Assembly (NCBI RefSeq): GCF_964204645.1 | Contig: NC_134036.1 | Span: 8,222,812-8,286,811 of the forward strand | Direction: 5' to 3' | Source: Tubulanus polymorphus | Lineage: Eukaryota; Animalia; Nemertea | Length of the DNA: 64,000 nt | Part shown: positions 3,137 to 48,559 of the stretch, in pieces | How positions within the stretch are numbered: the stretch's first letter is position 1 | How the letters are laid out: each line of letters begins with the position of its first letter | Notes under the pieces: generated by a model | What the model saw: only the letters and a program-made list of their open reading frames with translations | Database searches by the model: none | What the model was told of the DNA's origin: nothing | Made by a program: the position numbers and the translations under genes

Positions 3137-3168
3137 CAGAAGAAATCAAACCTATAGACTCTTTACTA

Positions 3169-3222
<54 letters not shown>

Positions 3223-3254: not shown

Positions 3255-3269
3255 AATATATATATATAT

Positions 3270-3827: not shown

Positions 3828-3857
3828 TCATTGACGAAATCCGAAGTTTGAAGAACT

Positions 3858-29100: not shown

Positions 29101-29219
29101 ATATGGCCATATATCACTTGAAAACATTAACCAAATTGAGGTGTGCGTTCAAAAAGATTGAGAGAAATATCTTAAAACAAACTCGACCCCAGACAAATAA
29201 AATGAATAGACTTAGATAG

Positions 29220-29325
29220 ATAGGGAGGAACGCGACAGAGTCAGGCGATGCCATCAGGTTCAAATACCTGCGAGGGAGGAACGTGGCAGAGTGTCGCGAT
29301 GCCATCAGGTTCGAATCCCTGCAAA
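29220..29325 (+). repeat. Tandem duplicate of a SINE box-B core
   Basis: GGGAGGAACG...GCGATGCCATCAGGTTC(A/G)AAT occurs twice; matches ~16911-16946. Confidence 0.5.
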
Positions 29326-29838
29326 GAAGGATCTTCACTCGAACGATATACGATATTTTCCGACAATACAAAAGAAAAAAACAGTCCAAAAGTCTTCCCA
29401 CGAGCTAATATTTGATTCAGCATTGATTTGATATATATTTATATCGTATAAATTCGATGTATTAATTCGATTCCGAACTGGGCTCAAGTCCGATATACGT
29501 CGAAATAGAGCGTTATGCTTAAAGTCAACTGAGTAAATCGGCTGTTTATCTGTAATTGTGGTCGGCAGGTAGACACTATATGCAATACGTCGTGAACTGT
29601 CGATGTGAGCATTCCTTTACTTTTGCACTGTATAGTGTATCCAGGAAGAAAGACACTAAATATTTGGATGGATATATGAAAGCTGTGGGTACTGGAGTGT
29701 GTAATGGGTAGTGTAGTGTGACCTGTGTGCATTTGTGGCCAACACCAAACATTGTTCATTGGGGTTTGGTCCAGGACTCACGAGATTTTCAACAACACGG
29801 AAGTAACGTGTAATAAATGATGACTTGAATTGCGTGAC

Positions 29839-30258
29839 TACCTACCACCCCTCACTATTGTTGGAAAACTAAATGTTCCGCACTGACTAAAAATTAGTAA
29901 TAACATTTTAGAAATGGCCAGAATTTTAACTTAGGTTCTATCTCATTTTTATTTTACAATTGCGATTGGTATAATTTTTTTTTTAAACGGCCGTTAAGGC
30001 TTCATGTTTCGTCTGCAATTCACTGCAAATAGTTACGCAACTACGCACATTTCAGTGTTTTTGGCAGCTGTACACTCAATGGACACCGTTCGTGACTAGC
30101 TTCACTGCGGAATTATCATTAATTAACATGGCCATATCACATCATCAACTTATATTGTGCATTAAAACACTAACAGCCGAAATAATTGAAATGCACACAC
30201 GATTTCTATCATTGAAAATTGAGAGAGTGACCATGTTTGTGTTCTGCTGCTTCGCGTA
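29839..30258 (+). repeat. Left part of the host repeat interrupted by the Polinton (continues at 47441-47490)
   Basis: High identity to 20536-20954. Confidence 0.88.
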
Positions 30259-30348
30259 AGTAATTAGAAAAGTGGGGTTTCATACCAGAGGGCGAGAGGG
30301 CGAGACACCACTCATCACCACAAGTAATTTTTTTTCCTAATAAATGGG
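30259..30348 (+). repeat. Left TIR (contains promoter motif and ATG of ORF 30344)
   Basis: AGTAATTAGAAAAGTGGGG...GTAATTTTTTTTCCTAATAAATGGG; reverse complement of 47351-47440. Confidence 0.95.
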
Positions 30349-30670
30349 AGATAGAAAAGCATTCTTAGCAACAATAAATAACAGAATAAAACCAGCAAAA
30401 AAACAATTTGAAATAAAAAAGTTAGTTGATGTTACAAAAGAAATTGAACATAAGATATTGAAATTAGAAAAGATAAAAACTAAATATGGAGAGAAAGTAT
30501 CAGCTAATTTAAGCTACTGTAATGTTAGTACATCACGAGAATTTAAAGTGTTTTTACCCGATAAATGGGTTTCATTGAGTATGGAGGAATTGAAAGATTT
30601 AATAGGATTTAAAATAATATATCATGGGAAAAATGAAGACGGTCATCATGATTTAGAAATTGTTGATTAA
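30344..30670 (+). CDS. Polinton hypothetical protein (108 aa; possibly OB-fold ssDNA-binding)
   Basis: ATAAATG start; a diverged homolog at 21421-21762 supports coding status. The fold is a guess from the beta-rich TKYG pattern. Confidence 0.75.
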   Translation: MGDRKAFLATINNRIKPAKKQFEIKKLVDVTKEIEHKILKLEKIKTKYGEKVSANLSYCNVSTSREFKVFLPDKWVSLSMEELKDLIGFKIIYHGKNEDGHHDLEIVD

Positions 30671-31675
30671 ATAAAAAATAAAAATAATGAATATCTAGAA
30701 TCCAAAATGACCTTAGTCGTTTTATAAACAACTACAATCATACAGTACATCTGTTACATGTTATTATAAGAGAGTGCTTCATTTGAATATTGATCAATCA
30801 AACAGGTGTTGCACAACGTTGTTGTTATATAATAAGCACGTAGTACATACAACACACACAAACCAGTTAGCTGGTATTGAATTACTGCGTTTTCATTGGT
30901 TTCTGAAAACGAGGTTTATTTAAATTAGCTCGGCCGTGACGATAGGAGGATAGTCATCATTCTCTCGTGATTAAAAGGAATATTTCAATGTTTTTACGGT
31001 AAGTTTTAGCAAAACCACCCGACTTGACTCACAGAGTTTTTAGGGGATAAGCATCCCGTTATTGAGAGGCGCCACGAGATACCTATCCCCAAGCATTTCT
31101 ACTTACACCCCTGTGACCCACACCTCACCAATTCTCCTTCAATGGTTGACAGGAAACACATTATATTAAAGGCGCCTAATGCATTTCCTATCAACCCCTT
31201 ACCCCCGAAAGGAGGATCGAAAGTCGAAACTGAAGGAGAACCACGGAGGGTGGACAAAGGTGCATTTTCGAAATGCCCCTGCAAGCCAAGCCCGGCGGCA
31301 CTCCAGTGGTTGAATGAATTGCCTTATATACTTAGCTAAAACACCTAAGTAAATGTTGTTGGTGCTAAAAAAATATGTGAAATTTGAAATTATAAATTAT
31401 TCCGAATGAAAAGAATGTAAGAATGAAAACTGAAAAATGAATTATGTATTTTCAACTTAATTATGATATAATTTTTAATCAAATTAGTAATCAATTACTA
31501 TGTTAATTGATTAACAAATTCAAATTCAAATATTCAAATAAAAACAAAATAAATTAATAAATATAATGAATATCTAGAATCCGAAATGACTTATCTGGAC
31601 AATTTAATTGCTCCGCATAGATAGACAAAAGTAGTGAGATATTCAATTATTTTTTTTTGCTTTTTTTCTAAAATA

Positions 31676-32044
31676 TTAATCCATTTTTTTTATTATCAAT
31701 TTTGGAATTTCAGAAGTATTTTCATTTTTGATAGCAGTTGTTTCAGAATTACTAATATCATGAATTTTATTTGATTTCTTATACCAATTACACCCAATCA
31801 AAATGAATACAATTACAAATCCAACTGTAAAATATAAATATTTATCAAATATTCTATTATCAGAAGGAGTAGAAATAACAATATTTTCACCATTTTTATT
31901 AACATTTCTATTACTTATTTTTTCTTTTACAGCTTTTTTATATTCTTGTGATTTAATTCCTAATTGCCGAGACCATTCAATTTGTTTCTGAGTTCTCGGT
32001 TTTTTCTTCACAGTTAATTCCTTCACTTTTTTCACTTCGCTCAT
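31676..32044 (-). CDS. Polinton hypothetical protein with basic N-terminus and one TM helix
   Basis: ATAAATG start; hydrophobic YLYFTVGFVIVFILIGC. Confidence 0.7.
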   Translation of the reverse strand: MSEVKKVKELTVKKKPRTQKQIEWSRQLGIKSQEYKKAVKEKISNRNVNKNGENIVISTPSDNRIFDKYLYFTVGFVIVFILIGCNWYKKSNKIHDISNSETTAIKNENTSEIPKLIIKKMD

Positions 32045-32582
32045 TTATTATAGAAATATTTTTACTTTCAATATTTGAAAATGTTATAACTCCAGTTGAT
32101 AATAATGTCATAAATCCACCTAATTGAAATGATAAATATCCAATCCATTTATTTAATTCAGTCATAACTAAATAATCATTTTTTAAATCGAAATATAATC
32201 TATTTTCATCTTCAATTGGTAGTATATAATTACATAATTTACTATAACCTTTTACTACATTTTCTGATATCGCGTCATTAATTCTAGCTGTTCTCGCGGC
32301 TTCATAAATCTTAAATAATCTAATAATTTCATCTGATTTCATTGTGTCTAATTCATTATAAGTTAAATTTTTACTGACAAAATTTTTACATTTTCCAGAT
32401 GCTATTAATATTTCTAATTGATGTTTACAATAAAGATAATATTCATAATTATTATTTGTTGTAACATTATTTAAAGCACCATCATCTGGAATTAATTTTG
32501 TTTCTGTTATTCCTAAATCATCTAAAGTTTTTTCAATTGGAACATCACCATTTTTAGATTTTATTTTCTTTTCACCTACCAT
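31977..32582 (-). CDS. Polinton hypothetical protein (201 aa)
   Basis: TAATTTTTTT-N6-TAAATG start motif; long ORF in AT-rich DNA. Confidence 0.75.
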   Translation of the reverse strand: MVGEKKIKSKNGDVPIEKTLDDLGITETKLIPDDGALNNVTTNNNYEYYLYCKHQLEILIASGKCKNFVSKNLTYNELDTMKSDEIIRLFKIYEAARTARINDAISENVVKGYSKLCNYILPIEDENRLYFDLKNDYLVMTELNKWIGYLSFQLGGFMTLLSTGVITFSNIESKNISIINERSEKSEGINCEEKTENSETN

Positions 32583-32615
32583 TTATATAACAAAAAAATT
32601 AATTGTGTGATGTTG

Positions 32616-32770
32616 CAACTAGAATTTAACTAGAATGTAACTAGAATTCAACTAGATTAACAAGCTAGTTGAAATATTGTTAAATCTAGTTGATTTTTGT
32701 TTCAACTACTAACAACTAGAATTCAACTAGAATGTAACTAGAATTCAATTAGATTAACAAGCTAGTTGAA
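32616..32770. repeat. Intergenic array of direct and inverted CAACTAG(AAT) units
   Basis: Repeated (C/T)AACTAGAAT ~11-mers plus inverted CTAGTTG, arranged as two blocks. Confidence 0.85.
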
Positions 32771-32771
32771 T

Positions 32772-33380
32772 TTAAATAAATTCATATTTAAATGGGTGTT
32801 GTAATCTAAATAGTAATTTTGATCTTTTAATATTTTTCAACTTATCCATATATTCATTATGTAAATCATGTGGAATAATATCATTTTCCTCAAGTGCATT
32901 TTTCATTGATTTTCTATCTGCATTGTTGAATAAAACTAGAAATCTAATGTTTTCTCTAAAGTCTTTAACAATTGAATTATATTTTTGATTTAAAACCCAA
33001 GTTGTTATCCCAAAATGTCTCCCAGAGAAAGCTAAATAACATAACTCACTTTCTCTAACTTTTGAATCATGTAAATTTGCACAATCATCTATGATAAATA
33101 ATGTATTTGATCCTTTATAAATATCAATTGCTATTTTTATACAATTATCTAAATTTTCTTTTACTGTTTTAGGATCTAATATAATAAATTTATTATTTCT
33201 AGTAATATTTCTATCATAAGTTTGATTAAATTCATATGTTGGACAAAATAATACTATATTATCAAAATAGTTTTTGTAAACAGTTTCTAATAAATTTAAT
33301 ATAAAATAAGTTTTTCCACAATTTGTTACACCAGAAATTAACATATTATGAGGCTCAAATATGAATAATTCCTTATTCAT
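32772..33380 (-). CDS. A32/FtsK-HerA-like genome packaging ATPase
   Basis: Walker A GVTNCGKT, Walker B LFIIDD, SGRH motif, LNQ. Confidence 0.9.
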   Translation of the reverse strand: MNKELFIFEPHNMLISGVTNCGKTYFILNLLETVYKNYFDNIVLFCPTYEFNQTYDRNITRNNKFIILDPKTVKENLDNCIKIAIDIYKGSNTLFIIDDCANLHDSKVRESELCYLAFSGRHFGITTWVLNQKYNSIVKDFRENIRFLVLFNNADRKSMKNALEENDIIPHDLHNEYMDKLKNIKRSKLLFRLQHPFKYEFI

Positions 33381-34508
33381 TTATATATTTTTAATTTTAC
33401 TTGATAATATCCATTCATTGAATTTATCTGGCCATCCAACCCATTTTACTAAAGAATATTTTTTTCTTTTAATAGTTTTTGTTTTTAATACTTTTTCAAT
33501 TTTATATTCTTGTTCTAGATTTTCAGTAGTTAAACTTAATTCTTCTTCATAAAAGTAACCATCAACTTCTTCACCATCTAAATCTTCTAATTAATAGACA
33601 TATGGTTTTGTTGTTATTACCTTTTTTATTTTATATATTTCTCTAGTAAAATTTCGATCGTATCCTTTGTCAAATATCTTTTTATACTTAGAAATTCTAA
33701 CATTTTGACCAACTTTAAATTTAGGTTCACCAAAATCATCTATAAGAAATGCTCCATATAAATTATTCCAAACAATTTCAGCATTTTCAGATTTTCTAGC
33801 ATCAATAGGTTTCATTCCAATAGAAGAATGATAAGAATTATTATATCCTTCTATCAATTTTGGTAAAACATCAATCCATTTAAAAGTATTATTTGCTGTA
33901 AAATATTTCCACATTCTTGTTCTTAATGTTCTATTAAATCGTTCAACAACTGCTGCTTTTTTATCTGATTTTGTTGAAAAATATTTAATATTATGATTAT
34001 CTAAGAGTTCATGAACAAGTGAATTATCAAATTCTTTTCCATCATCAAATTGTATTTTTTCTGGTTTTAGTTTATCATCCGAAAGAAATTTTCTTAAAAC
34101 ATGTGATGTTTGTGCAGCATCTTTTCTATAAAGTGGGAAGCTCCATACATAACGACTAAAAATATCAATTATATTCAATAACCACCAATAATCATCATTA
34201 TCTTTCTTAACATTTTTCATATCAATTAAATCTCCTTGCCACTGTTGATCTACATAACTTACCATAGTTTTACGAGTTTTATATTTTCTAACAATTTTTT
34301 TATGTGTTGTATATGTTGGTTGTTCTAACATAAATTCATTTATATCTTTATATTTAACTAAATTTTGTGGGATTATCTTATCTAATTTATCTTGTTTTAC
34401 TTTACGCCATATATTTTTAGTAGAAGAATAAGCAACCGAACTCTCAGGGTTGTAATATAAATTTCTTAAATATTGTTCTTTAGTATTAGGAGTTTTTTTA
34501 CCACTCAT
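33381..34508 (-). pseudogene. rve (retroviral-like) integrase with C-terminal chromodomain, interrupted by in-frame TAA at 33591-33593
   Basis: WQGDLID, IDIFSRY, QFDDGKEF, VVERFNRTLR. After the stop the frame continues LEDLDGEEVDGYFYEEEL...YKIEKVL...LVKWVGWPDKFNEWI to TAA at 33381. Confidence 0.9.
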
Positions 34509-34538
34509 TTATATATCCTTAATTTTAACTTTATATTT

Positions 34539-35786
34539 CTAATATTGAATACTATCTAATTGTGAATTTACAATATTTAATTGCGCGTCAGATATAATAT
34601 AAATGTGCATTTTAAAATTTTTGATTCCTTTTTTCTTTGTTATGAATAATTGTATTCCATCTTTTGTATTTTGTAGTTTTTTCCCAGAACCATGTAATGA
34701 ATTATCTTCAGTTGTTCTAAAATCTAACCATAATGCATATTTATTACCGGTATAATAATCAATTTGATTAATGTTACAATTTTCAAATGATTTTACTTTT
34801 TCATTCATAAAATGTTTTTTAATTTCTACCCATTGATCTATCATTCTCATTCCTTGACAAAATATTTTATTTGCTATTCCTTCGATAGTTATTTCTACTT
34901 TTGTTATTTCAGGATTATAATAATTGTCAACATTTATTGCACCATTAGTATATGTTCCAATGGTAAAAAATATTAATATACCTTTAATAGATCTTCTTGG
35001 GAAGTTAATATTCTCATTAATTATTTCATCATTTGCATTAATAGTTACAGTTTTAAATTTATCAATATAATCATATAATAATGAAAACCCTTGATTGTAT
35101 TGAGTTTGAATTATACTTGAAATATTTTCATCAGTTACTGTATCATATTCTAAACATATATTCGATAATTTATAACTCATATCTTTATTAACGCTAGATA
35201 ATACAATTTCATTTACAGGAGCAAATGTTATCTCAAATATAATATCTTCTTGAATTGCGTATTTATATAAAGGTGCATTATTATTTATCAATTCAAAGTC
35301 TAATGGAATTTTATATTTGCTTCCATATATACTTTTTATCAATCTATCTACATCATTTGTTAATATTGCGCTATTAGCTTCTGATCTTAATTTATTTTGG
35401 TTTTCTGATTGAATTCCTTGAAATATCATATTATTTCTATTTTCTTTAGTTAACCATAAATCTTTATAATGCATAAATAAATTATAATCATCTAATGAGA
35501 AAACTGTTTCTGGACCAATCTTTATTGTTAACTTTTTAATCAAATATCTCCCAACATTATCAACAACATAATTATTATTATTACCGATTACTTTTATATC
35601 AGCTGATAAATAAATACTATTTGGAACATAAAAAGTATTTTGTGTTAATCTAGGAATTCTAACGTATAAAGTTTCATCGGGATTAATATTTGAAGGGTTG
35701 TGAGTAATTATATGATGTGATCTTTCTGCTTTAATAGCATTAGATATTCTAGAAATCTTAGAAGGACTTATATAACTCCCACTCAT
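34539..35786 (-). CDS. Putative double jelly-roll major capsid protein
   Basis: 415 aa, beta-strand-rich pattern typical of Polinton/PLV MCP (YKIPLDF, LSNICLEYD, YALWLDFR); context within the element. Confidence 0.7.
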   Translation of the reverse strand: MSGSYISPSKISRISNAIKAERSHHIITHNPSNINPDETLYVRIPRLTQNTFYVPNSIYLSADIKVIGNNNNYVVDNVGRYLIKKLTIKIGPETVFSLDDYNLFMHYKDLWLTKENRNNMIFQGIQSENQNKLRSEANSAILTNDVDRLIKSIYGSKYKIPLDFELINNNAPLYKYAIQEDIIFEITFAPVNEIVLSSVNKDMSYKLSNICLEYDTVTDENISSIIQTQYNQGFSLLYDYIDKFKTVTINANDEIINENINFPRRSIKGILIFFTIGTYTNGAINVDNYYNPEITKVEITIEGIANKIFCQGMRMIDQWVEIKKHFMNEKVKSFENCNINQIDYYTGNKYALWLDFRTTEDNSLHGSGKKLQNTKDGIQLFITKKKGIKNFKMHIYIISDAQLNIVNSQLDSIQY

Positions 35787-35823
35787 TTATTTAACAAAAA
35801 AATTAATTATTTATTTTTTGATA

Positions 35824-37260
35824 TCATGGTTCACTTGATATTTTTGATATCATATTTACTAAACCAAAAATAATAGCACTTACAACTGTAATTAAAAATA
35901 AAATAATATGTTCAGCAGCAAAGTTAATAATGTTTCCTGCAGATTTCAATATAAAACCAACAATTGAAGCAATAACTCCTGGTAAAGCTGCAGCAGATTT
36001 CTTTGATAGTTCCCATAAATATTTTGCTAATTTCTTTAAACCATCCTTTACTTTATCTTGTATAGAATTATTACCTGGAGGTTTATCTGGTTTATTGGGA
36101 GTAGGAGTAGATTTTAATGAATTTGAAATAGCTAAACCAATTGTTGTAAATAACATAGTTACAGCTGTTACAATTGAAAGAATTGTTATACCTTCTAATT
36201 TAAATAATAATCTTATTCTGTCTTTTAATGATATTTCAGAATCTGGTTTTATCAACAAATCTTTAAAAATAACTTTTAATCTATTAATATTATAATCATA
36301 TGATTTTAACAATAATTTAATTTCTTCTTTCTGTACTTCTAAATTATCTTTTAAATTACTAATTTCTTTTTCTAAACGTAATTCTTTTTGCCTATATTCT
36401 ATTTCATCAATTACTTGATGATCTAAATCAGACTTTAATTGTTCTATTTCTTTATTTTTATCAGTTAATTCTTTTTCCAAATACGTAATTTTTTGATCTC
36501 TTATACTTTTATTATATGCAATTTTATCAGATGCTAGTTTTATACTAATAATTTCTCTAATTGCTTTATCAGAAAATATATCTAAATCTTCTAATTCTTG
36601 ATATGTTGCATCAAGTAATCCATTTGGTAAAAGTTTTTCAGTTTGAACTTCTCTTGAATTAGGTTTACTAGTTTTGGAATTAATAACTTCTTTAGGAATT
36701 TTTTTTTGTCTTAAATTTGCATTAATTATATCAAAAAATTTAGCATTTCTTTGTTTAAATTCTTTTAAATTATAATCTCTTTCTTCTTGTGTAACATCGG
36801 TTATAACATCATCAATGATTTTCTTAATTCTATCTGGTTTAAATAAATTAAAAGTTGATTTTGTTATTATTTTATCACCACTTTTAAGATTTAAAATCTT
36901 AAAATAATAGTCGCCTTTCAATTTCCAATAATAATCACCATTTAAATATTTTAAATCTTTTACTAAATAATTCATACCTTTATTTGTTATATTGAAACCA
37001 GATCTTTTTAATATTGGTTTAAATTCATGAATAATTTCATTATAATTGTATTCTTTTTCTGTTATTTCTGGTACTTCATTTTCAATACTTATCTTTGAAC
37101 GTGCTTTGTCAATATATTGAGGTGTAGTTAAATTAGAATTATATGCTGTTTCATTACCATCATTAAAACTTGTTTCATCAAAATCAGGTGGTTGTTCATC
37201 AGTTATACCAGGTTCATCAAAAGGATCCATTCCAATATCTTCTACACCTTCTACATCCAT
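35824..37260 (-). CDS. Coiled-coil protein with C-terminal hydrophobic/amphipathic helices (putative membrane protein)
   Basis: Acidic N-terminus, heptad region, TM-like ITILSIVTAVTMLFTTIGLAI, Pro linker, amphipathic and hydrophobic C-terminus. Confidence 0.8.
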   Translation of the reverse strand: MDVEGVEDIGMDPFDEPGITDEQPPDFDETSFNDGNETAYNSNLTTPQYIDKARSKISIENEVPEITEKEYNYNEIIHEFKPILKRSGFNITNKGMNYLVKDLKYLNGDYYWKLKGDYYFKILNLKSGDKIITKSTFNLFKPDRIKKIIDDVITDVTQEERDYNLKEFKQRNAKFFDIINANLRQKKIPKEVINSKTSKPNSREVQTEKLLPNGLLDATYQELEDLDIFSDKAIREIISIKLASDKIAYNKSIRDQKITYLEKELTDKNKEIEQLKSDLDHQVIDEIEYRQKELRLEKEISNLKDNLEVQKEEIKLLLKSYDYNINRLKVIFKDLLIKPDSEISLKDRIRLLFKLEGITILSIVTAVTMLFTTIGLAISNSLKSTPTPNKPDKPPGNNSIQDKVKDGLKKLAKYLWELSKKSAAALPGVIASIVGFILKSAGNIINFAAEHIILFLITVVSAIIFGLVNMISKISSEP

Positions 37261-37276
37261 TTATATAATAAAAAAA

Positions 37277-38665
37277 TTAAAATTTAAAATATAATATTCC
37301 TCCGATTACAATTCCTATACAAGTTATAGCTAATTTAGTATTTTCATGGGATTTATTATCATTATCAGTTTTAATTATATCATGTTGAATTTTATCAGTT
37401 CTATTATTTTCTGATGTATTGTAATCTTTTATTTTAGAATCATTATTTAATTTAATATTCTTAGTTTTAGTTTCAGTTGATTGAATGTGTTTTTTATTTT
37501 TATCACCTTCCATTAATTTTGGAGCAGTAATAATCTTTTTATTTATATCATTTAATCCAAATGAATTATTTATTGTTGCAGTTTTAATTAGATTATTATA
37601 ACCAATTATGTTTCCCATCTTTAATACTAAATCATTAGAAATAATTAATAGATTAGGGCCTATACAATAATTAAGTCTTACATGAGATTTATCTAAATAA
37701 TTTTGATATCTTATAATGTTTTCTGGAATCGATCTATTTTTATCATCATGTATGGAATCTTCAAATAATACTTTGAATTGTTTCTGTGTATCAAATGATG
37801 TATTCAAATTTCCAATTATCGGTGATCTTGTTTCAACTTGTGATCCTAGAATACATATCAAATAAATTCTAATAGATTGATTTATTCTTTCTATACCTGA
37901 TTTAGTAAAACCTTCACTATTTTCTAAAATAAAATAAACCCAACCATTATTGTTTTCTTGTTTTAAATTATCATAAAATTTTGGTAATTTATTGAAATTT
38001 AATGTTTCTAAATCCTTTGTTTCTATTTTACCATAACCTAATTTATTATTATAGATATTATAAAAACTATTAGATGGTATGGGAAGTGCACAATATTCTG
38101 CAATCTTTCTAGGGCATGGAAGTTATCTTATTGTTCCAATTTTTGTTCTAAAATCAGAATTATTTATATCTATATTAAATTCATTGCAAATTTTATAAAA
38201 CTTTGATAAATTAATATTATTATCTAATTCTTTAAAATATCTAGATCCTGGTAAAGCGCACTCTAATTCATTTAATATTATTCTGATTTGAAAGTATGTA
38301 TGAAATCTAAATAAACTTTGAATTAGTTTATATTTAGAATTATTCAAATGATCATTCCAACTAATTCCACAACCTGTTGTTGCACAATAAACAGCAAAAT
38401 TTAATTGATTCTGCCAATACTTCATATTAGATTTTAATAACCATTGTTTTTCATCTTTCAATTTTTTAAAATTAATTAAATATACATGAAATATATTTTC
38501 CATCTTTGCATTAAAATTATTAGTTTCAGTAACATAAATATATAAATTAGTTAATGAATCTAAAACTTCATTTCTATATGTAATATCTTTATTAAAATCT
38601 ATTGCTGGAATATTATATTTAATTGATTTATTATATTGGAAAGCTTTTGGAAAACTATCTACCAT
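37277..38665 (-). pseudogene. Single ~462-codon Polinton gene with C-terminal TM anchor, split by in-frame TAA at 38123-38125
   Basis: The frame stays open from 38122 into ORF 37277-37861 (87 codons, LPCPRKIAEYC...GWVYFIL). Only the 38665 start has the ATAAATG motif. Confidence 0.8.
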
Positions 38666-38681
38666 TTATATAATTAAAAAA

Positions 38682-39116
38682 TTAATAATTTATTAATTCT
38701 TTTAATAATTTATCTTGTTCTTCAACTGTTATATGACCATTTAAACTTATTATATAATCTAGTGTGTTCTTTAATTTATTAATTTCTTTTATATTAGTTT
38801 TAATTTTTTCTTTATTACTTTTTATATTTAATTTTGAACTTATACCAGTTAAAACACTTGAACTTAATCCTAATACACCAATTGATATAGCTAAAGGTGT
38901 TAATGGACTGAATATTGCTAAAAATGTTATTACAGAACTAATTGTAACCGAACCACTTATAATCAAATAATATATAATTTTACTTTTTAAATATTTTTTC
39001 TTTTTTATCTTTAAGTCACTTTCAAATTCTAATATTTGTTTTTCTAAATATGTTTTTAATTTAGTTTTATTTATATCATGAGGAATAATATCAATACTAT
39101 CAACTTTATCTTCCAT
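38682..39116 (-). CDS. Two-TM hypothetical protein (144 aa)
   Basis: Start motif; two hydrophobic segments flanked by charged helices. Confidence 0.75.
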   Translation of the reverse strand: MEDKVDSIDIIPHDINKTKLKTYLEKQILEFESDLKIKKKKYLKSKIIYYLIISGSVTISSVITFLAIFSPLTPLAISIGVLGLSSSVLTGISSKLNIKSNKEKIKTNIKEINKLKNTLDYIISLNGHITVEEQDKLLKELINY

Positions 39117-39135
39117 TTATTTAGAAAAAAAATTA

Positions 39136-39558
39136 CTAATTAGTAAACTTATAAGCAACAAATATAACAATAACTGTTCCACCTAAAATCCAAATTATTT
39201 CATATTTCTGTTGTTCTTTACTTGGGGTATAATAATCTGATAATTTAGGTTTGTATAGATGTAATTTTTCTTTATTGGTTACCGCGTTATATAAACTCAT
39301 TGCATCATCAACTGATTGAAAATCTCTATGTGAAATCTTCTGATCATATAATTCTTTATTGATGTAATCCATATAGTTTTGTCTCTTTTCTCTATATTCT
39401 TCTGCAGCTTTATTGTATTTCTCTAACGCTAAGTTATGTCTTCTTTGTTCTCCTAATGAACTATTTTTATCAATATGTTTAAATAAATAACCACCACCAG
39501 TAAATGCTAAAGCGTTAACAATTGCCGATCCTATAATAGTTATAATTGCAGAAGCCAT
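39136..39558 (-). CDS. Hypothetical protein with hydrophobic N-terminus and C-terminal TM (140 aa)
   Basis: Start motif; MASAIITIIGSAIVNALAFTGGG and IIWILGGTVIVIFVAY. Confidence 0.78.
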   Translation of the reverse strand: MASAIITIIGSAIVNALAFTGGGYLFKHIDKNSSLGEQRRHNLALEKYNKAAEEYREKRQNYMDYINKELYDQKISHRDFQSVDDAMSLYNAVTNKEKLHLYKPKLSDYYTPSKEQQKYEIIWILGGTVIVIFVAYKFTN

Positions 39559-39582
39559 TTATTTAGCAAAAAAATTACGCAT

Positions 39583-39804
39583 TTATATGGGAGGAATATA
39601 TTTTTGTTTTTCCAAATAATCAATTGTTAAATTAGATAAAGTAACTGCTAACGTTAACTTTAAAATATCATTTATATCAAATCTATCAACATTAACACTT
39701 CCCATTTTGAATACTTTTTTTAATACCATTGAATAACCAACAGTTCCAACTGATAGTAATGCACCATTATATAATCCAGTTATTATCCACTTATTATCAC
39801 TCAT
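39583..39804 (-). CDS. Small hydrophobic hypothetical protein (73 aa)
   Basis: Start motif GTAATTTTTTTGATAAATAAATG; tightly packed between neighbours. Confidence 0.7.
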   Translation of the reverse strand: MSDNKWIITGLYNGALLSVGTVGYSMVLKKVFKMGSVNVDRFDINDILKLTLAVTLSNLTIDYLEKQKYIPPI

Positions 39805-40146
39805 TTATTTATCAAAAAAATTACTATCATCAAAATATTTAGTTAACTTATTTATGATTAATTCAACATTTATTTCATTACTAGTTTTATGATTATCATA
39901 TATTTTGGATAATATGTTTTTAATATCTTCAATAATTCCATCTTCATTTAATTCATAATATTCTAATGGTGATTTAATTAAATCAATTACTTTTTCTATA
40001 TTATACTTTTCTTTATCAATCATTGATGCATTGTTAAATGATTTACTTTTTATATCAGTAATGACATCATTTAGTTTAATTCTCATTTCTTTACTATGTT
40101 TAAAATCAAACCCAAAACATATACTCTGTCCAACAGTTATATTCAT
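39805..40146 (-). CDS. Hypothetical protein (113 aa)
   Basis: Start motif; its TAA abuts the next ATG. Confidence 0.7.
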   Translation of the reverse strand: MNITVGQSICFGFDFKHSKEMRIKLNDVITDIKSKSFNNASMIDKEKYNIEKVIDLIKSPLEYYELNEDGIIEDIKNILSKIYDNHKTSNEINVELIINKLTKYFDDSNFFDK

Positions 40147-40163
40147 TTATATAGTGAAAAAAA

Positions 40164-40916
40164 TTACTCTCTACATCTTATAACTAATTCATAAATTACA
40201 GGGAAATTATTTAAATCAATTAAGTATCCATTATGATTTCTAATTTCTAATCTAAAATTATTAAAACGAGAAATGCATGGTTTGAAATCACATTCTGTTA
40301 AATTATAATTTATTTGCGTTCCAAATTCTTTAACATTCTTCAATGGTAAAATGTTTAGTAAACCAGAATTACAAGTTATATCTTTAGTTGCTTCGAATGT
40401 TTTTGTAGGATCAATTAAATTGCAATAAATATAAAAATGTGTGTAAGGTATCAAGTTTGGTGTAGCATCAACATTTGAATAAAGTTTATCTGGTGTAATT
40501 CCTAACAGTTTAGCTATAGGTTTTTTAACTAAAAATTGATATTTTTCACTACGAGTTAACCTAATCCTTATTTTATCAGAACTATCACTTTTTAAAAATC
40601 TAATACTAAACCCGGAATTACTACCTAATTTGTGCCAGGCTTTTCTATTAATTTCTTGTGACAATGTATCTAAATTATATAACCCTGGTTTTAGATATAA
40701 ATGATACCTTTTATTTTTTTCCTGAACTATAAACAATTGATGATCAATAGTTTTACCCGTTATATTATAAAAAGAATTACATAAACTTATATTAACTAAT
40801 TTTAAATCTACACAATTCTTAAATTCTCTATCTAATTGTACTAGTAAATTATGAGATTTATAATTTGTAAGTCTTCTAGAATCAACAAATATTCTGTATT
40901 CTTTTAGTTCTACCAT
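40164..40916 (-). CDS. Putative minor capsid (penton, single jelly-roll) protein
   Basis: 250 aa with IFVDSR, LKPGLYN, FYIYCNLI, LLNILPL and LEIRNHNGYLIDLNN patterns typical of Polinton/virophage pentons. Confidence 0.72.
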   Translation of the reverse strand: MVELKEYRIFVDSRRLTNYKSHNLLVQLDREFKNCVDLKLVNISLCNSFYNITGKTIDHQLFIVQEKNKRYHLYLKPGLYNLDTLSQEINRKAWHKLGSNSGFSIRFLKSDSSDKIRIRLTRSEKYQFLVKKPIAKLLGITPDKLYSNVDATPNLIPYTHFYIYCNLIDPTKTFEATKDITCNSGLLNILPLKNVKEFGTQINYNLTECDFKPCISRFNNFRLEIRNHNGYLIDLNNFPVIYELVIRCRE

Positions 40917-40984
40917 TATTTATAACATAAAAAAATTACCGCTCATCACTAAAAATTAATTTTAATAAAATTTTTCCTTAATAA

Positions 40985-42286
40985 ATGGATGAGAAGATAG
41001 CATGCGAAATTTGTGGTGAACTTCTAAGAAAAAGTAATATGGCTCGACATATGAAAAAACATAATGAAAATTATAAACCCCCTAAAATAAACTGTCCAAA
41101 TTGTAATAAAACATTCTCTAGAAATTATTTCAAAAAACATTTAGAGAAGTGTAGAATTAATGGTGCAACAGCTAATGTTGATAATAATTCTGTTGAAGTT
41201 GAACCTGAAATCATTTGGAAAAGACCTTTCTTATTCTATGATAAGGATAATATAAAAGATCATTTCTGTGAGCCTTGTCGAATAAAATATAACCCTGAAA
41301 ATATAGAAGATTGGGAGAATCATCAATTTCGTAAAGCACATATAGATAAAATTTCTAATAAATTTGAAACTGAATTCAATGAAAGAAAAAATAATTTATT
41401 AGAAAAAATAAAATATGAGAAAACGTTACCAGATAATGAAGAAACAGTTGAAAAGTTAGAAAAACAATATAATGAATTAACAAGAAAAACATATTATTGT
41501 AAATATTGTAAATTGATTATTACAACAAGTAATTCAAATCTACATAATAGAACAATAAAACATAAAGAAAACGTAAGAAAATACCAAGAGCTTAATGAAG
41601 ATCTATTACCAAGAAATTATAAACAAAAATGCCCACAATGTAGTTATGCGACCTTAAGGCAAGAAGGTACTGTGTTATTTTGTGTTGATTGTGGATGGCA
41701 AAAGAATTTATGGGATGAAGAAAAAACTAGAAATTTTCTTATAGATCCAAAATTAAATTATCTTGATGAAATTTTTAAAATATTTTCTATAGAAGATCAT
41801 ACACCAGAATATATGCAATGGCTTGAAAAAATGAAAATAATAGAAAATAAAAATGGTGAAATAACTAAAAAAGATATTATAAAAACCATTATTCCACCAA
41901 CATTTAACACAAAACAAAAGAAAATGTATTTATATTTATTATTTAACGATTATTATGAAAAACCTAAATTAACAGAAGAAGATATGAAAAATATAAAAAA
42001 AATATTCAAACAAATATTAATGTATCATTTGGAAAATAGAATAACAGATTCAATAAATTATGAATTCTTTTTAAATAAGATTGTAAATTATTTAAACCTA
42101 GATATTATAATTCCATTTGATGAATTAACAAACAAAAAGAAACAAAGAGAGCGAGATGAAATGTGGAACAAGATAGAACTTTATTTAAATGAGAAAAATG
42201 GAATGGAAGAAGAACCTGAACAATTAAATGAAAATGAAGAAGCTAATAGTGATTTCGAGTATGATGATATTGATTTTATGTTTTAA
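40985..42286 (+). CDS. Multi-zinc-finger protein fused to a poxvirus A2/VLTF3-like late transcription factor domain
   Basis: N-terminal C2H2-type fingers, zinc ribbon CPQC-x13-CVDC, then KLTEEDMKNIKKIFKQ...SINYEFFLNKI...DEMWNKI resembling VLTF3 (by recall). Confidence 0.72.
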   Translation: MDEKIACEICGELLRKSNMARHMKKHNENYKPPKINCPNCNKTFSRNYFKKHLEKCRINGATANVDNNSVEVEPEIIWKRPFLFYDKDNIKDHFCEPCRIKYNPENIEDWENHQFRKAHIDKISNKFETEFNERKNNLLEKIKYEKTLPDNEETVEKLEKQYNELTRKTYYCKYCKLIITTSNSNLHNRTIKHKENVRKYQELNEDLLPRNYKQKCPQCSYATLRQEGTVLFCVDCGWQKNLWDEEKTRNFLIDPKLNYLDEIFKIFSIEDHTPEYMQWLEKMKIIENKNGEITKKDIIKTIIPPTFNTKQKKMYLYLLFNDYYEKPKLTEEDMKNIKKIFKQILMYHLENRITDSINYEFFLNKIVNYLNLDIIIPFDELTNKKKQRERDEMWNKIELYLNEKNGMEEEPEQLNENEEANSDFEYDDIDFMF

Positions 42287-45200
42287 TGGCCATAAGGTAA
42301 TGTTTTTATACCATCATCTGAAATATGCCTTTTATCATCAAATGGATTTAAAGTAGTTTTTTCAACTTCATTAATGTACATCTCATGATCTTCTGATCTT
42401 AAACAATTCATCTTGTGTTTCATTACAATTGAGTTATATAAACACTTTATATAATCTTGAAATTCTATATGTTTATCAACCACATGTTTTGTTATTCCTT
42501 TTAACTTTTTAGCTTCATGATCTTTTGTTCTGTAACTATACATTTTACTTCTTATCCCAACAAATTCAATCATTTCATCACCTCCTAATTCATCTTTAAA
42601 TTTACCAGGAATCTTTTTATTATCATTACTAAACAATTCATGATCTTTGGGGTAATTGCTAAAGTCGAAATAATGTTTCAATGTTTTTAAGTCTTTTGTT
42701 ATATCATTTGTCTTGATTTTTAGTATGTAACTGTCAGTATTTTTTTGGATTAATGGGAACCCAGAATTGAATGTTCCATCATCTGTTGATAAATCATAAA
42801 CATAGTCAGTTGGGTTATATATTTCAAATAAATCTTTAACTTCTTCTGTTAATTCTTTTTCTACATGCCTTAAATTAAAACAATTTGGTTTAGATTTAAT
42901 TAATTCTATATTCATATTAAATCCTAATGAACAGAATAATATATTTAATCCTGATATAGCCACTTTTCCTTTCTGTGCAAAGGTTATCTTTTTATCCTTT
43001 GTAAATTTTTTAGTACCATCGGCTGCGTAGAACCCAATGAAGAACCATTTTCTTAAATTATTTTTTGCATTTAATACATAATCTGGAACTATCTTTTCTT
43101 TTGTTGAAGTATTACTTTTCACTATTGCATGAATATAGAATTCATCATTATATTCTATAGCAAAATCTTTAGGATTATTTACAAGTATTCTATAAACTGC
43201 TGATGATTTCATAACATCCATGATTCTAAATGTTTTATGTGAATAAACTTCTTCACAGAATTTCTTAATTCTTTCTAATAATTTTAAGTCTTGATTGCAT
43301 AAATACCAACAATATTTATTACCCCAAACATATTTATACACACCTGCTGAACCATCACCCATGAAAAATCCTTTGATAAAATATTCTTTTTCTTCTAATG
43401 TTTCAGGTTCTATATTATAAATATTACCAATTATTTCATCAAATGACATATGATTCATTCTTGGGAAAAATCTTTTATGTAATAATTCATCTCCAATTTT
43501 TATATCAGTTGGTTTTATTTCATCACCATTTCGTTTAATTAAACTGTGGTCTTCAGTAACATCTACAAACCCTAATTTAGTTCTAACTCTATAGATTTTC
43601 TTATTTGTTTTATGTCTAATAATATTCTTTAATTTTTTCCATCCATTTCTTGTCCAAACATCCATTAAACCATTTATTTGTATTAGTTCTTTTTCACCAT
43701 ATGAAATATAAGATTTATTTTGATTAGGAATAATTTCTGAAATTCTTCTAATTAATATTTGGTTATTGTATTTTAATAATATTGGGGTGTCAGCTGTTAC
43801 AGAATCGAAGTATAGAATTTCTATATGTTTTTCCCCAAACAATGGTTGTAATACATTGTAATAAAAATCATACATTAATAATTTTGATATTTCTAAAACT
43901 GTTGAACCAATGAAAATGGGTTTATTAAATTTCATTGACGTTCTTTTTAATTTTACTGCTGTTAAATAATCTTCAAATCTTTTATTTCCTAAATGTCTAG
44001 GACTTGATTGTAAATGTCTTAATCTTTCAGAATTATTTACTAATTCAATATCATTTCTATTTCTAATATTTTCACAAGTTTTTCCATAAAAACTATTGTT
44101 CATCAATTTAAAAAAATCTTTTTCGAAATCAGTTTTTGATATGGTTCTCTGTTGAGTATTGAAATCTATATATTTTTCTAACCACTTCGATTGATTAAAT
44201 TCAATATATCTATGTACTTTCTTTAATTTCATTCCTTGTTTTAGATAAAATTTTAACATTCTATAATGAACAATATAATTATATTTATTATTTTGAGTAA
44301 GTATTAATTTTTCTGTAAAAACATGATCTTTTGGTTTTATTTTCTTCTGGTATTCACTTAAATAACTATCATCTACAGTTAAATGTTCTGGGCAATAAGG
44401 TAAGTTTCTTGTTTTAAACTTTATATTTTCAGGATATTCTAAATCAACTACAAAGAAATAACCAATTGGTGCTTCATCTTTTAAACTCGCAATTGCGCTT
44501 TCCCAATCAGTTTTATCATCACTTTCAACTTCTGTTAATATAAAATTTTTATATGGTTGAGGTTGCATCATTGCCCAACCATATAAATTATTGGCGTCAA
44601 TATATAATAATTTATATTCATCATTTGCTTTAAAATACCTATCTCCCATAACACCACTAATTCCACCTCTAATTGATTTTTCAAATAATAAAACCATATC
44701 TGGTTCTTTTAATAAATCTAATTCTACATTTGTATATTTTAAACCACATTGCCAGGTTAAACCAGGACTTGAATAACAATAACAAGGGTCAACATTAAAA
44801 TGGTTTAGATTAACTTCTCTAAACTTTTCAAATATATCTGCCAATATCATAACATCTGATTTTAAATATAAATCAACTAATTCGCCATGATTTTTCATCT
44901 TAAAATGGTTCCAAATATTTAATGTTCTATCAAAAACTTCGTCTTTCACATACTCCTCTTTTAATTTATCATAAAATTGATCTTTTAATAATTCTGTTAC
45001 ATTAAAATCATTGTGTGTTTTATAAAATGAATAAGGAATTGCACCTTTATATCTCAATAATTTAAAATCTTGGTCATTTGGATAATAATATCGAGTTATA
45101 ACAAAATCATTATCAACTAAACTTTTTGATAAATTATCTAATGAACTTGCTAGAAATCTATAAGAATCTAAAAATCTAATGCAACCAAATTGAAATGAAA

Positions 45201-47355
45201 TATAATTTTCAGATGTTTTAGCTAATAGTTTAAAATCATATTTTCTTACATTTACACCATTCATAGCATTATATTCTTCTATTTCTTGATTAATTGCGCC
45301 CAATTTTCCTGATAATTGTTTTATAAATAGATGGGTATCATATCCTGATAAATTATGAAATAATATTGGTACGAAATTTACTTTTTTAGCTTGTAAATTG
45401 CAATCTTCATGAGCAGCTCCACGATATTTTGAATTTAAATGATTATGATCTCTAACTTTTTTATCAAATGAATAAAAACGTTTTTCACAGTAACAACAAT
45501 GAGTTGCATAATTAAAATCAATTTCATCTTCTTTTGTTATAACTATTCTTTTATTTTTGTTTAATAATTTTGCAAAATCACTTTCTAATTCAATCATTTT
45601 ATCACAAAAATCATTAACTACATTTTCACCTCTAAAAGAAATATATTGACTTTCATATAATTCGGGATAATTTGATTTTATATAAATTCCATAAGCAGCA
45701 GCTCTTTGATGAACTTTTTTAATTGTATTTATAATTGGTGGGTCTTGTATTGTGTCTTCATTTAATTCATTTCCTTTATCCATTGATTTTAATAATTGCT
45801 TTTTGTTATATATTTCTTTTCTATCTTGATCAGTTAATTCTTTATTCAACGATTCAAAATCCCCATAAATTACAAATGGAACAATATTCTTAAATTTATG
45901 ATTAGTAAATTTCAATTTATAATCTTTTTCTGTTGGCATTATTAATTTACAAAAATCTTTATTATCACATAATTCTTTATGTTTTAATAATGTATTCTCA
46001 GTCATAAATTTAGATAAACATTTTCTACATAGATAAATTTTACGATGATGATCACTTTCTGTTGTTCTAAAGAATAAATCAATTTGTTTTAACCACATAT
46101 AATGTTCATTTTCATCTTTTTTGTAATATAACAAATCTATAGCATTTTCATCATCATAATATTCTGTTAAATATAAAGCTTCCAATGTATAATCTTTAAT
46201 ATTTTCACCTTTTGTCTTTGGTAATTGCATTAATTCAAATACATTTATTTTTAAATTATTAATTTTTTCTATTTTAGGAATCATTTTTATAGTTACTGGA
46301 TATTGATCAATTTTATATAATGTTTCATATTTCCGGTAATTTGTTATTCTAAAACTATGCGTCATATCTTCTGTTTGGTGTAAACAACTAATAATTGACC
46401 ATAGAAAACATTTATTATCTTCATTTTGAACATTTATTACTGCTTTTGTTGTAAATGGTAATTTAATATAAGATGATGCTTTAATATCCTTTTCTGTTGT
46501 AAAGTTTGAATCATTTTTAAACATTTTATTACTTTTTGATGTTTTATTCCTTTTTGTATTATAAACATTTAAATCTAAATATATAATTTCATTCAATGTT
46601 AAGCCAGAACCCTCAAAATATCTTTCTTCAATATGACGTTTAAATTCATTTAATATTTTTTCTAACTTCTCTTTTATTTGTGTTTTTGAAATTATTTCTT
46701 CAGAGTGTGTTTGAATATTATAATTCATTTTTTCTTCTGACTTTATAAAACTTACTTTCCCAGAGATACTAATTTTTGGATATTCAACATCTGTTATCAA
46801 ATCTAGTAATTTTTCTATTATTTCATTAAATGTACTATAATCTTCTATTGTTGTACCTTTAAAAAATCTAAATATAATAGCTGCAGGACCAATTTTACTA
46901 TGTAATGTTTCTAAGATTTCAATTGTATCTTTTATTTCTAGTGAATCAATATAATTTCTAACATTTTCCATGTAAGGTTTATTTGAAATGGATTTAGTTT
47001 TTGAAGTTGATTCTTTTACTTGTTGAGGTTTATTATCAAAATATTCTAATCCTAAAACATTTTTATTTAAATTTTTATAATGTTTTTGTGATTCGAGATG
47101 TCTATTATAATTCCTTTTTACTATAAATTCATTACAAACTTCACATTTTATTTCATCCACATTCATATTTTCTAATCGTTCTTTTCTTTCATTAGAATTT
47201 TCTGGAGTTTCAAAATCTATTACATTTTTTATATGATTTACAGTTTTTTCATGTCGTGTTTTATGAGATGTATCGATGTATTTTTTACAATATTGACAAT
47301 AATATTGATTTTTATTGACATTATTGTTTTCTAGTTGGTGTTCATTCTCCCCCAT
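42283..47355 (-). CDS. Protein-primed family B DNA polymerase (pPolB) with N-terminal Zn fingers, OTU-like and HNH/EndoVII-like domains and an intein
   Basis: Exo motifs YGDFES, FHNLSGYD, YLKSDV; polymerase motifs YIDANNLYG, KLMNNSFYGK, YFD/TDS. NEDNKCFLWS (OTU-like Cys); CCYC...VRDHNH...GAAHEDCN (EndoVII-like). Confidence 0.95.
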   Translation of the reverse strand: MGENEHQLENNNVNKNQYYCQYCKKYIDTSHKTRHEKTVNHIKNVIDFETPENSNERKERLENMNVDEIKCEVCNEFIVKRNYNRHLESQKHYKNLNKNVLGLEYFDNKPQQVKESTSKTKSISNKPYMENVRNYIDSLEIKDTIEILETLHSKIGPAAIIFRFFKGTTIEDYSTFNEIIEKLLDLITDVEYPKISISGKVSFIKSEEKMNYNIQTHSEEIISKTQIKEKLEKILNEFKRHIEERYFEGSGLTLNEIIYLDLNVYNTKRNKTSKSNKMFKNDSNFTTEKDIKASSYIKLPFTTKAVINVQNEDNKCFLWSIISCLHQTEDMTHSFRITNYRKYETLYKIDQYPVTIKMIPKIEKINNLKINVFELMQLPKTKGENIKDYTLEALYLTEYYDDENAIDLLYYKKDENEHYMWLKQIDLFFRTTESDHHRKIYLCRKCLSKFMTENTLLKHKELCDNKDFCKLIMPTEKDYKLKFTNHKFKNIVPFVIYGDFESLNKELTDQDRKEIYNKKQLLKSMDKGNELNEDTIQDPPIINTIKKVHQRAAAYGIYIKSNYPELYESQYISFRGENVVNDFCDKMIELESDFAKLLNKNKRIVITKEDEIDFNYATHCCYCEKRFYSFDKKVRDHNHLNSKYRGAAHEDCNLQAKKVNFVPILFHNLSGYDTHLFIKQLSGKLGAINQEIEEYNAMNGVNVRKYDFKLLAKTSENYISFQFGCIRFLDSYRFLASSLDNLSKSLVDNDFVITRYYYPNDQDFKLLRYKGAIPYSFYKTHNDFNVTELLKDQFYDKLKEEYVKDEVFDRTLNIWNHFKMKNHGELVDLYLKSDVMILADIFEKFREVNLNHFNVDPCYCYSSPGLTWQCGLKYTNVELDLLKEPDMVLLFEKSIRGGISGVMGDRYFKANDEYKLLYIDANNLYGWAMMQPQPYKNFILTEVESDDKTDWESAIASLKDEAPIGYFFVVDLEYPENIKFKTRNLPYCPEHLTVDDSYLSEYQKKIKPKDHVFTEKLILTQNNKYNYIVHYRMLKFYLKQGMKLKKVHRYIEFNQSKWLEKYIDFNTQQRTISKTDFEKDFFKLMNNSFYGKTCENIRNRNDIELVNNSERLRHLQSSPRHLGNKRFEDYLTAVKLKRTSMKFNKPIFIGSTVLEISKLLMYDFYYNVLQPLFGEKHIEILYFDSVTADTPILLKYNNQILIRRISEIIPNQNKSYISYGEKELIQINGLMDVWTRNGWKKLKNIIRHKTNKKIYRVRTKLGFVDVTEDHSLIKRNGDEIKPTDIKIGDELLHKRFFPRMNHMSFDEIIGNIYNIEPETLEEKEYFIKGFFMGDGSAGVYKYVWGNKYCWYLCNQDLKLLERIKKFCEEVYSHKTFRIMDVMKSSAVYRILVNNPKDFAIEYNDEFYIHAIVKSNTSTKEKIVPDYVLNAKNNLRKWFFIGFYAADGTKKFTKDKKITFAQKGKVAISGLNILFCSLGFNMNIELIKSKPNCFNLRHVEKELTEEVKDLFEIYNPTDYVYDLSTDDGTFNSGFPLIQKNTDSYILKIKTNDITKDLKTLKHYFDFSNYPKDHELFSNDNKKIPGKFKDELGGDEMIEFVGIRSKMYSYRTKDHEAKKLKGITKHVVDKHIEFQDYIKCLYNSIVMKHKMNCLRSEDHEMYINEVEKTTLNPFDDKRHISDDGIKTLPYGH
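42739..43803 (-). other. Intein (355 aa) with LAGLIDADG homing endonuclease in pPolB motif C
   Basis: YFD|SVTADTP...VTEDHSL (block B)...IKGFFMGDG...FIGFYAADG...YVYDLST...LIQKN|TDS; excision restores YFDTDS. Confidence 0.93.
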
Positions 47356-47440
47356 TTATTAGGAAAAAAAATTACTTGTGGTGATGAGTGGTGTCTCGCC
47401 CTCTCGCCCTCTGGTATGAAACCCCACTTTTCTAATTACT
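47351..47440 (-). repeat. Right TIR (contains promoter motif and ATG of pPolB)
   Basis: Perfect inverted copy of 30259-30348. Confidence 0.95.
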
Positions 47441-48559
47441 CGCGTAAATCCCGCGCGGTGGTGCAACCGCGTGGAGTGGGGCCGATACGTATAGGTCTAT
47501 GAAACTGTCGAACAATCGACAGGTACAAAATGTTTTCAAAATCATATTACAATAAAATTATGTTGTTGTAATTCTTGGTATCGTTTCAAATTATTTTTAT
47601 TCATGTCTTTTGCTTGCGCCTGCCACCGATTTTCAGAGGTTTTTAGAAAACAAATCTCAAAGGCCAATATTGTTTGCCGACTTGTAATCGATTTTGAGGA
47701 CTACAACCACATGACGATCTCAAACACAAACAAATTGGTCTCAAAGGAAATTTGAAGAAAATCTTTATTATTAACAAATAAAAACGTCTACCCGGTACGT
47801 CAGGTTTCACTTAATCATTATATCAATAATCGCGTGTGTCTTCAAAGATCATTCGCGGTATGAACTAATTCAGAATATAGTTTCCGGACGTAACCTAGCA
47901 CTGGTTCTGATGATGATACAGAACTGGCCTGAACAGAACTATGTATTCATCCTGCCGTTATTGTAATAGATATATGTTGTGCGCCAACATTCATTTATCG
48001 GGTTTTAATCGGCTCGTTTTACTCTGTTGCCGTCCTTGGGAATTATGTAGGCATGTATATCTCACTTCATTTTTTGTTCATCGCAATATAGGGGCCGGTT
48101 GCACAGTCACGGCTTACACTTAAGATCAGTCTTAGACCATCTTAGTTCACTAGCCAATCAAACAACTCGACACAAGTCTTACGAATCAAGACCACTTTTG
48201 GTGTCAAACCACCACTGTGCAACTGGCCCCGGGCAAATCTATTTTATTAATCCTTGGACGTCGTCATCCCAAAATCTGAGCTAAGGGCGCTTTTTAAGAA
48301 TGTCTAAAAGAATGTCTGGGGCCAAACTGCCCCCTCCAAGCCAGGAAACCTGTACCGGTACACGATCTGTTGATACAAATACGCTTTTCCTTGTTTATGT
48401 AATGCGCTGCCCTTGGACATGATAGCAGTTGATGATATCGTTCACGCATTAAAAAACTTAGTTAACGTGGTTATGATATATATTATATATGAGGCCATGG
48501 AAAGATCGCGCAGTACAAGAGAGTTATTGGTATATCGCTTATTACCCATCCGTTACCGA

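Follow-up and report, generated by a model that had tools for sequence, protein, structure and literature searches.

What a poxvirus-type late transcription factor is doing inside a mobile element of a nemertean genome is the question that this locus raises. The window, a 64,000-nucleotide stretch of Tubulanus polymorphus DNA, holds an uninterrupted open reading frame of 433 amino acids (40985..42286, + strand) in which zinc fingers precede a domain resembling the VLTF3/A2 proteins. The motifs quoted in the preliminary description (CPQC...CVDC, PKLNYLDEIF and SINYEFFLNKI...W) are all present in the translation, and the Pfam and AlphaFold/Foldseek comparisons that it had named in advance as its refuting test returned profile and structural matches to VLTF3.

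All three C-terminal fragments of the protein matched Pox_VLTF3 (PF04947) at 27.5, 27.7 and 31.6 bits (E 2.9e-6 to 1.6e-7; the curated Pfam cut-off is 25 bits). The full-length protein returned zinc-finger families only, including zf-U1 (28.9 bits, residues 169-200), and missed PF04947, and A2L_zn_ribbon (PF08792) was not matched by Pfam in the fragments. Clusters of PF04947 made up 27 of the 30 ESM Atlas matches (top score 0.94), one of them consisting mostly of Preplasmiviricota. Profile-profile alignment between the element rows and A2 of chordopoxviruses covered 191 columns at 97.5% and E 4.9e-12. Alignment of VLTF3 rows places a C4 zinc ribbon at residues 216-236 (41630..41692, +); its four cysteines are invariant across 39 rows, and the element protein keeps the core residues of the nine invariant columns. 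A helical VLTF3 domain with a predicted cyclin/TFIIB-like fold follows (about residues 237-405; 41693..42200, +).

VLTF3/A2 proteins held the top BFVD ranks for two AlphaFold models, one covering the full length (pLDDT 65.7; built from five rows, none of them chordopox) and one covering residues 206-410 (pLDDT 87.5; 39-row alignment with pox and Megaviricetes rows included). The solved structures that best matched the VLTF3 domain model were TFIIB, Brf and cyclins, with Z up to 7.0 (yeast TFIIB: Z 7.0, rmsd 3.3, 93 residues aligned), a middling score within the range of common arrangements. The whole-protein model had no significant Foldseek match in the PDB, its weak rows being Rap94 and TFIIB, and a sequence search found no A2-like sequence among solved structures. 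A word-index protein search with residues 200-410 recovered nothing among 1366 candidates, an alignment query recovered only the relative P0002 (see below), and scans of viral contigs with the C-terminal part, two family alignments and the capsid as queries found no relative. The profile, ESM Atlas and hhalign results, along with the modelled likeness to cowpox A2 given next, confirm the identity first proposed: the protein is a real member of the VLTF3/A2 family, with a predicted role in late transcription.

Within that family, the window domain scored 66.8 bits against a profile of all poxviruses, 40.6 against chordopox, 32.0 against entomopox-like and 15.0 against Megaviricetes rows. These profiles held 9 chordopox rows (of 37), 6 entomopox-like rows and 22 Megaviricetes rows, the last taken from 118 motif-bearing loci after length filtering and de-duplication. 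Because both comparison sets had been collected with a motif, the columns of that motif were removed in a rescoring, which gave 39.1 bits for pox versus 8.1 for Megaviricetes (shuffled maxima 6.5 and 10.0). The best TM-score was to cowpox A2 (0.67, from the model whose alignment included pox rows), compared with 0.49-0.50 for iridoviruses, 0.44 for marseillevirus and 0.41 for ASFV, and cowpox A2 was again highest (0.32) for the whole-protein model built without chordopox rows. Separation of the groups by hhalign was modest (chordopox 97.5%, entomopox 96.7%, Megaviricetes 96.2%), and by Foldseek E-value a Megaviridae VLTF3 ranked first or third in the two models. The best tree, with 40 rows, united those of the element (93/90) and placed them outside chordopox plus entomopox sequences (97/89), on long branches; since that tree comprises three groups and no root (asfarvirus and egovirus sequences absent, fragment P0012 dropped), it allows the label "sister to poxviruses" and does not demonstrate it. 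An AU test on 19 rows, with the divergent homologue P0003 dropped, did not reject a grouping of element and entomopox rows (p-AU 0.224). Entomopox matches from one homologue search were discounted as evidence of affinity, since the query had contained an entomopox-like row. On these sequence and model comparisons "poxvirus-like" is a fair description of the domain; the suggested poxvirus affinity holds for profile scores and TM-scores, whereas the best tree does not nest the protein among the sampled chordo- and entomopoxviruses, and origin of the gene by capture from a poxvirus is not established.

The N-terminal part of the protein carries four fingers, as the preliminary description had indicated, and they are conserved in the lineage; its term "C2H2-like" applies strictly to finger 1 only. 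Motif positions place fingers 1 (C2H2, residues 7-26) and 2 (C2HC, residues 37-56) at 41003..41152 (+) and finger 3 (residues 95-119) at 41267..41341 (+), and Pfam and motif place the U1-type finger 4 (residues 172-193) at 41498..41563 (+). The remark that similar fingers begin the protein-primed DNA polymerase (pPolB) was borne out: fingers 3 and 4 share the H-x5-H spacing of the U1/JAZ/met type with both pPolB-initial fingers, and the first pPolB finger of a related locus, L001, matches finger 4 at 41% identity across 39 residues. Fingers of this type are annotated as RNA-binding, with ESM Atlas scores below 0.9 that serve as leads only.

A search of 1.84 billion representatives with the fusion protein yielded four matches. 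P0001 (48%) and P0002 (39%) retain all four fingers, the ribbon and the VLTF3 domain, the shorter P0003 has diverged in form, and P0004 is an entomopox-like VLTF3. Fingers precede the ribbon in 3/3 full-length proteins of the element lineage versus 0/37 chordopox and 0/67 Megaviricetes VLTF3 proteins, so that, as far as the sequences sampled go, the fusion is conserved and specific to this lineage. In L001 the VLTF3 gene is convergent with a pPolB gene 70% identical to that of the window, the same arrangement as in the window. The record of L003, a Polinton-like locus, yielded no PF04947 match. At the end of L001 stands a terminal repeat similar to that of the element, with a RhoGAP-like exon beyond it (6310-6508), so this relative is probably integrated in a host intron.

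The gene belongs to a Polinton/Maverick element of 17,182 bp (30259..47440), delimited by its terminal inverted repeats (TIRs), its GC content and empty-site read joints. The TIRs are 93 nt long (30259..30351, +; 47348..47440, -), a 6-bp target-site duplication, CGCGTA, flanks them on the left (30253..30258, +) and right (47441..47446, +), and GC is about 23% (77% AT) compared with about 38% in the flanks. More than 1000 reads carrying the same species label run directly from one flank into the other, skipping 17,188 bases. Read depth was about 235-267 over the VLTF3 gene (at 85% likeness) versus 9-14 in the three host bins of least depth (at 90%); with thresholds that differ and reads from another individual, this makes the element multicopy at roughly 20 copies or more. 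Depth on the capsid side (34312-36303, 38296-40287) is two to four times that on the VLTF3/pPolB side (40952-44271), a difference due either to exchange of modules within the family or to more rapid divergence. A scan with the TIR motif returned five loci, none of which encodes an element protein.

Besides these ends and the duplication, the element has the pPolB and rve integrase of a Polinton/Maverick. The pPolB gene (42283..47355, -) is convergent with the VLTF3 gene and encodes 1690 residues with two N-terminal fingers; Pfam found no DNA_pol_B_2 match in it, so its name rests on motifs and context. The protein is also related to IMG/VR loci and contains a LAGLIDADG-domain intein of 355 residues (42739..43803, -) at the YFD/TDS motif, which is missing from the L001 pPolB. 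Inteins are unusual in animal-integrated Polintons; in giant-virus PolB this insertion site is likewise used. The putative major capsid protein (415 residues; 34539..35786, -) has a weak Capsid_N match (E 0.01), and the 250-residue frame divergent from the VLTF3 gene (40164..40916, -), which lacks a family match, is a possible minor capsid protein. An A32-like packaging ATPase (32772..33380, -; Pox_A32 52.5 bits) and the integrase (33591..34508, -; rve 42.2 bits) are also encoded. In-frame stops split the integrase from its chromodomain part (33384-33590) and interrupt once a 462-codon gene (37277..38665, -), and judging from these stops this copy is probably not self-mobile. No element frame matched an RNA polymerase, A1 or G8 family in Pfam. 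Among minor features are a 144-residue frame with two transmembrane segments (38682-39116, -; weak SLATT_fungal match, E 0.004), a gene-poor and GC-richer stretch of 1 kb at the left end (30670-31676), and short tandem repeats of AACTAGAAT units between a 201-residue frame and the ATPase (32616-32770). Rfam returned no matches within 29000-48500.

The way in which the element's genes begin is poxvirus-like as well. TAAATG is found at 14/16 ORF starts of the element versus 41/656 other ATGs (Fisher p 1e-14). One of the two starts that lack it is an internal ATG of the broken 462-codon gene and the other is TAAATAATG, the start of the 250-residue frame; with the broken gene merged the count is 14/15, the shuffle maximum being 8 in 100,000. 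Only one of the TAA triplets in these signals doubles as an upstream stop codon. Ten T6-tracts stand shortly before TAAATG in the element, all of them at ORF starts, and none do so in 46,818 flanking bases. Eleven genes form this T-tract, late-like class, among them those for the capsid, the product of the 462-codon gene, pPolB (signal in the right TIR), a 108-residue frame (identical signal in the left TIR) and, as the eleventh, the TAAATAATG gene. The remaining four genes, for the VLTF3 factor, the ATPase, the integrase and a 122-residue frame, form an intermediate-like class with TAAAA-N11-TAAATG; the signal of the VLTF3 gene itself reads AATAAAA-N11-TAAATG (40964..40987, +), and its spacing is kept before the VLTF3 orthologues in L001 and L002. 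As the T-tract also precedes pPolB in L001, both classes occur there, with the A-rich class in L002. A T at -10, a late marker, is present in three of the four intermediate-like starts too, so the two-class split is our own reading.

In vaccinia, late promoters have TAAAT(G) with T upstream and intermediate promoters TAAA with A-rich sequence upstream (PMC11980589; the post-replicative consensus is also given in PMC5294985), and A2L and A32L are intermediate genes (PMC11980589). The A-rich class of the element likewise includes its homologues of A2 and A32. TAAATG was counted at 25/92 starts in chordopox loci and 21/216 in Megaviricetes loci, and seven of the eight chordopox A1L loci inspected have an A-run 11-13 bases ahead of TAAATG. 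Three further loci had it at 0/11 (L003), 0/1 (L005) and 6/8 (L004) ORF starts. L004 is a Polinton fragment (1-9034, 38% GC) with A32, rve-chromo and a pPolB with two fingers; VLTF3 was not detected in the 9 kb covered, so the signal may extend beyond the VLTF3 lineage. As a sequence match only, the gene starts of the element correspond to poxvirus post-replicative promoters with a TAAATG initiator.

We hypothesize that the element parasitizes a poxvirus-like helper virus, with its own VLTF3 serving as a late-gene switch on the helper RNA polymerase, a reading to which we give a probability of about 0.5. The near-universal poxvirus-style gene starts make it likely that the element borrows the RNA polymerase of this putative helper, and they lend real support to the earlier suggestion of a helper polymerase. 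During infection by a poxvirus-like virus, the helper polymerase would read free element DNA in the cytoplasm, and the four TAAAA-N11-TAAATG genes would fire first, as intermediate genes. The ribbon and cyclin-like domain might then take the place of A2 in a late complex with helper A1 and G8 and switch on the T-tract class of eleven genes, those for the capsid and pPolB among them. In what is the weakest step of this scheme, the fingers could bias the factor towards element templates or sites of element replication. The identity of the VLTF3 domain, its lean towards poxviruses, the TAAATG starts and the matching promoter class of A2 and A32 all count in its favour, and Mavirus/EMALEs (helper-matched promoters) and PLVs associated with poxviruses offer precedents. 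Counting against it are the position of the lineage outside chordopox plus entomopox in the tree, the modest hhalign separation, the high Foldseek rank of a Megaviridae VLTF3, the T at -10 in both classes and the L004 signal in the covered 9 kb with no VLTF3 detected. Moreover, the element copy is nuclear and integrated, whereas the proposed machine is cytoplasmic.

A first alternative is a helper-independent account, in which VLTF3 acts as a TFIIB-like factor that brings host RNA polymerase II to the element's T-tract/TAAAT promoters within the nucleus, while the fingers would supply sequence or chromatin targeting. Ariadnaviruses without an RNA polymerase are reported to retain VLTF2, VLTF3 and TFIIB (10.64898/2026.08.29.747986), and VLTF3, being kept by nucleus-dependent viruses of this kind, need not imply a viral polymerase. 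The multicopy family with its clean target-site duplication would suit such an account, as would the TFIIB, Brf and cyclin structures that best match the domain, although a Z of 7 is in the range of common arrangements. Against it, the scores of the protein are pox-like, and the cytoplasm is where poxviruses live. Furthermore, TAAAT adjoins the ATG, which leaves almost no 5' UTR, and the gaps between co-oriented element genes are mostly 16-37 nt. A T at -3 is a poor context for host translation. Poxviruses evade the poor -3 context through poly(A) leaders made by slippage (PMC6211774). We consider recruitment of host polymerase II less probable than the helper reading, though the most serious of the alternatives.

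A second alternative keeps the helper and reverses the role of the protein: the fusion would occupy or sequester the helper late complex and cut helper yield, as the helper's own A2 drives the element genes. A helper would already supply A2, so that a second copy needs a reason, and the element protein, with its large added N-terminus, is only about 18-22% identical to any sampled poxvirus A2; interference of the virophage type is documented (10.1101/2025.10.09.676808). We nevertheless judge a competitor unlikely, since the ribbon cysteines and invariant core are kept and no lost half is apparent, and the intermediate-like start suits an activator equally well. Improbable altogether is that the gene is conserved, non-transcriptional cargo (for example in RNA binding or replication) and TAAATG a matter of AT-rich packing or translation context: fingers 3-4 do resemble U1/JAZ/met and pPolB fingers, the element is 77% AT and L004 has the starts with no VLTF3 detected, but TAAATG lies well above composition controls at fixed spacing and is conserved in L001 and L002 while absent from L003 (0/11).

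Returning to the parasite of a poxvirus-like helper, we tentatively entertain a more specific form of it, in which this animal Polinton lineage would consist of provirophages whose helper is a deep-branching relative of poxviruses still to be discovered, with a miniature intermediate-to-late cascade and a finger-retargeted A2. An intermediate-class promoter would yield the element A2, whose four fingers would re-aim the helper late machinery at the T-tract promoters. If so, the element would be the first satellite to encode a re-targeted version of a subunit from its helper's transcription complex, and the element VLTF3 would mark the helper lineage like a fossil. More generally, the promoter set and matching factor name a testable trigger of particle production by animal Polintons, a poxvirus-type polymerase; they may indicate that invertebrates harbour poxvirus relatives so far unseen, and the element protein could serve as a naturally occurring variant of A2 with which to study the late initiation complex of poxviruses.

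With poxvirus A2/VLTF-3 (PF04947, PF08792) the element protein shares a C4 ribbon followed by a helical domain, collinear over about 190 residues, as well as the best TM-score and an intermediate-type start, the class of vaccinia A2L. It differs in its identity of about 20%, its branching outside the sampled chordo- and entomopoxviruses in the best tree, a four-finger N-terminus of 200 residues and an acidic tail, a C-terminal helix motif nearer that of Megaviricetes VLTF3, and its residence in a 17-kb element without a polymerase, A1 or G8. The claim that VLTF3 is not a canonical Polinton gene overstated the novelty, since VLTF3 in Polintons is already published and its presence alone is not new: a homologue is carried by stony coral polintoviruses (PMC11131425, there citing Krupovic and Koonin 2016), VLTF3 is listed in figure keys for MELD viruses (PMC8502044) and Tetraselmis PLVs (10.1101/2025.10.09.676808), and it occurs in about 30% of two Zephyr PLV clusters (10.64898/2026.06.19.733378). 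There, as here, a VLTF3 homologue is an accessory gene of a Polinton-type element; the portions consulted of these reports describe neither a poxvirus affinity nor a fusion to fingers, and they do not analyse promoters. The window element is set apart from these groups by their descriptions only and may belong to one already listed. PMC11253617 states that VLTF3 is a marker found exclusively in giant viruses, a use against which the element cautions.

Mavirus and EMALE provirophages likewise combine an integrase and pPolB with genes under helper-type late promoters (10.1101/2025.10.09.676808), but their helper is CroV and their host a protist, whereas the window element is in an animal, has poxvirus-type signals and its own late factor, and has a helper that is only putative. 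The entomopoxvirus-associated PLVs, also Polinton-like elements linked to poxviruses, measure about 12 kb and come from occlusion bodies (PMC11296320); an expectation that VLTF3 is among their genes found no support in that paper, where the text and supplement consulted make no mention of VLTF or promoters. Ariadnaviruses and mriyaviruses resemble the element in keeping VLTF3 despite depleted transcription genes (PMC11253617, 10.64898/2026.08.29.747986), but they are Nucleocytoviricota and also keep VLTF2, whereas the element has VLTF3 alone. Literature searches, with 10.64898/2026.10.13.758929 and 10.1101/2024.03.23.586382 among the works compared, did not find in print the four-finger fusion, the poxvirus lean or the matching two-class promoter set, and the titles and abstract openings covered (subscription papers and bioRxiv supplements being outside reach) describe no poxvirus-type promoters in Polintons.

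The surrounding host sequence is itself rich in repeats. The element is inserted in a very high-copy host repeat (29222-30258, 47441-47490; depth about 3500), an uninterrupted copy of which lies at 20533-20998. Four host-side frames of 203, 162, 400 and 240 residues (52695-56774, +), with no clear Pfam family and a depth a few times the lowest host depth, are probably a degraded transposon, and an F5/8-type frame in host sequence has a Pfam match below the cut-off. An LTR retrotransposon occupies 3270-10218; its 300-nt LTRs are identical, its frames are gag/pol-like, and by its motifs we take it to be of the BEL/Pao type.
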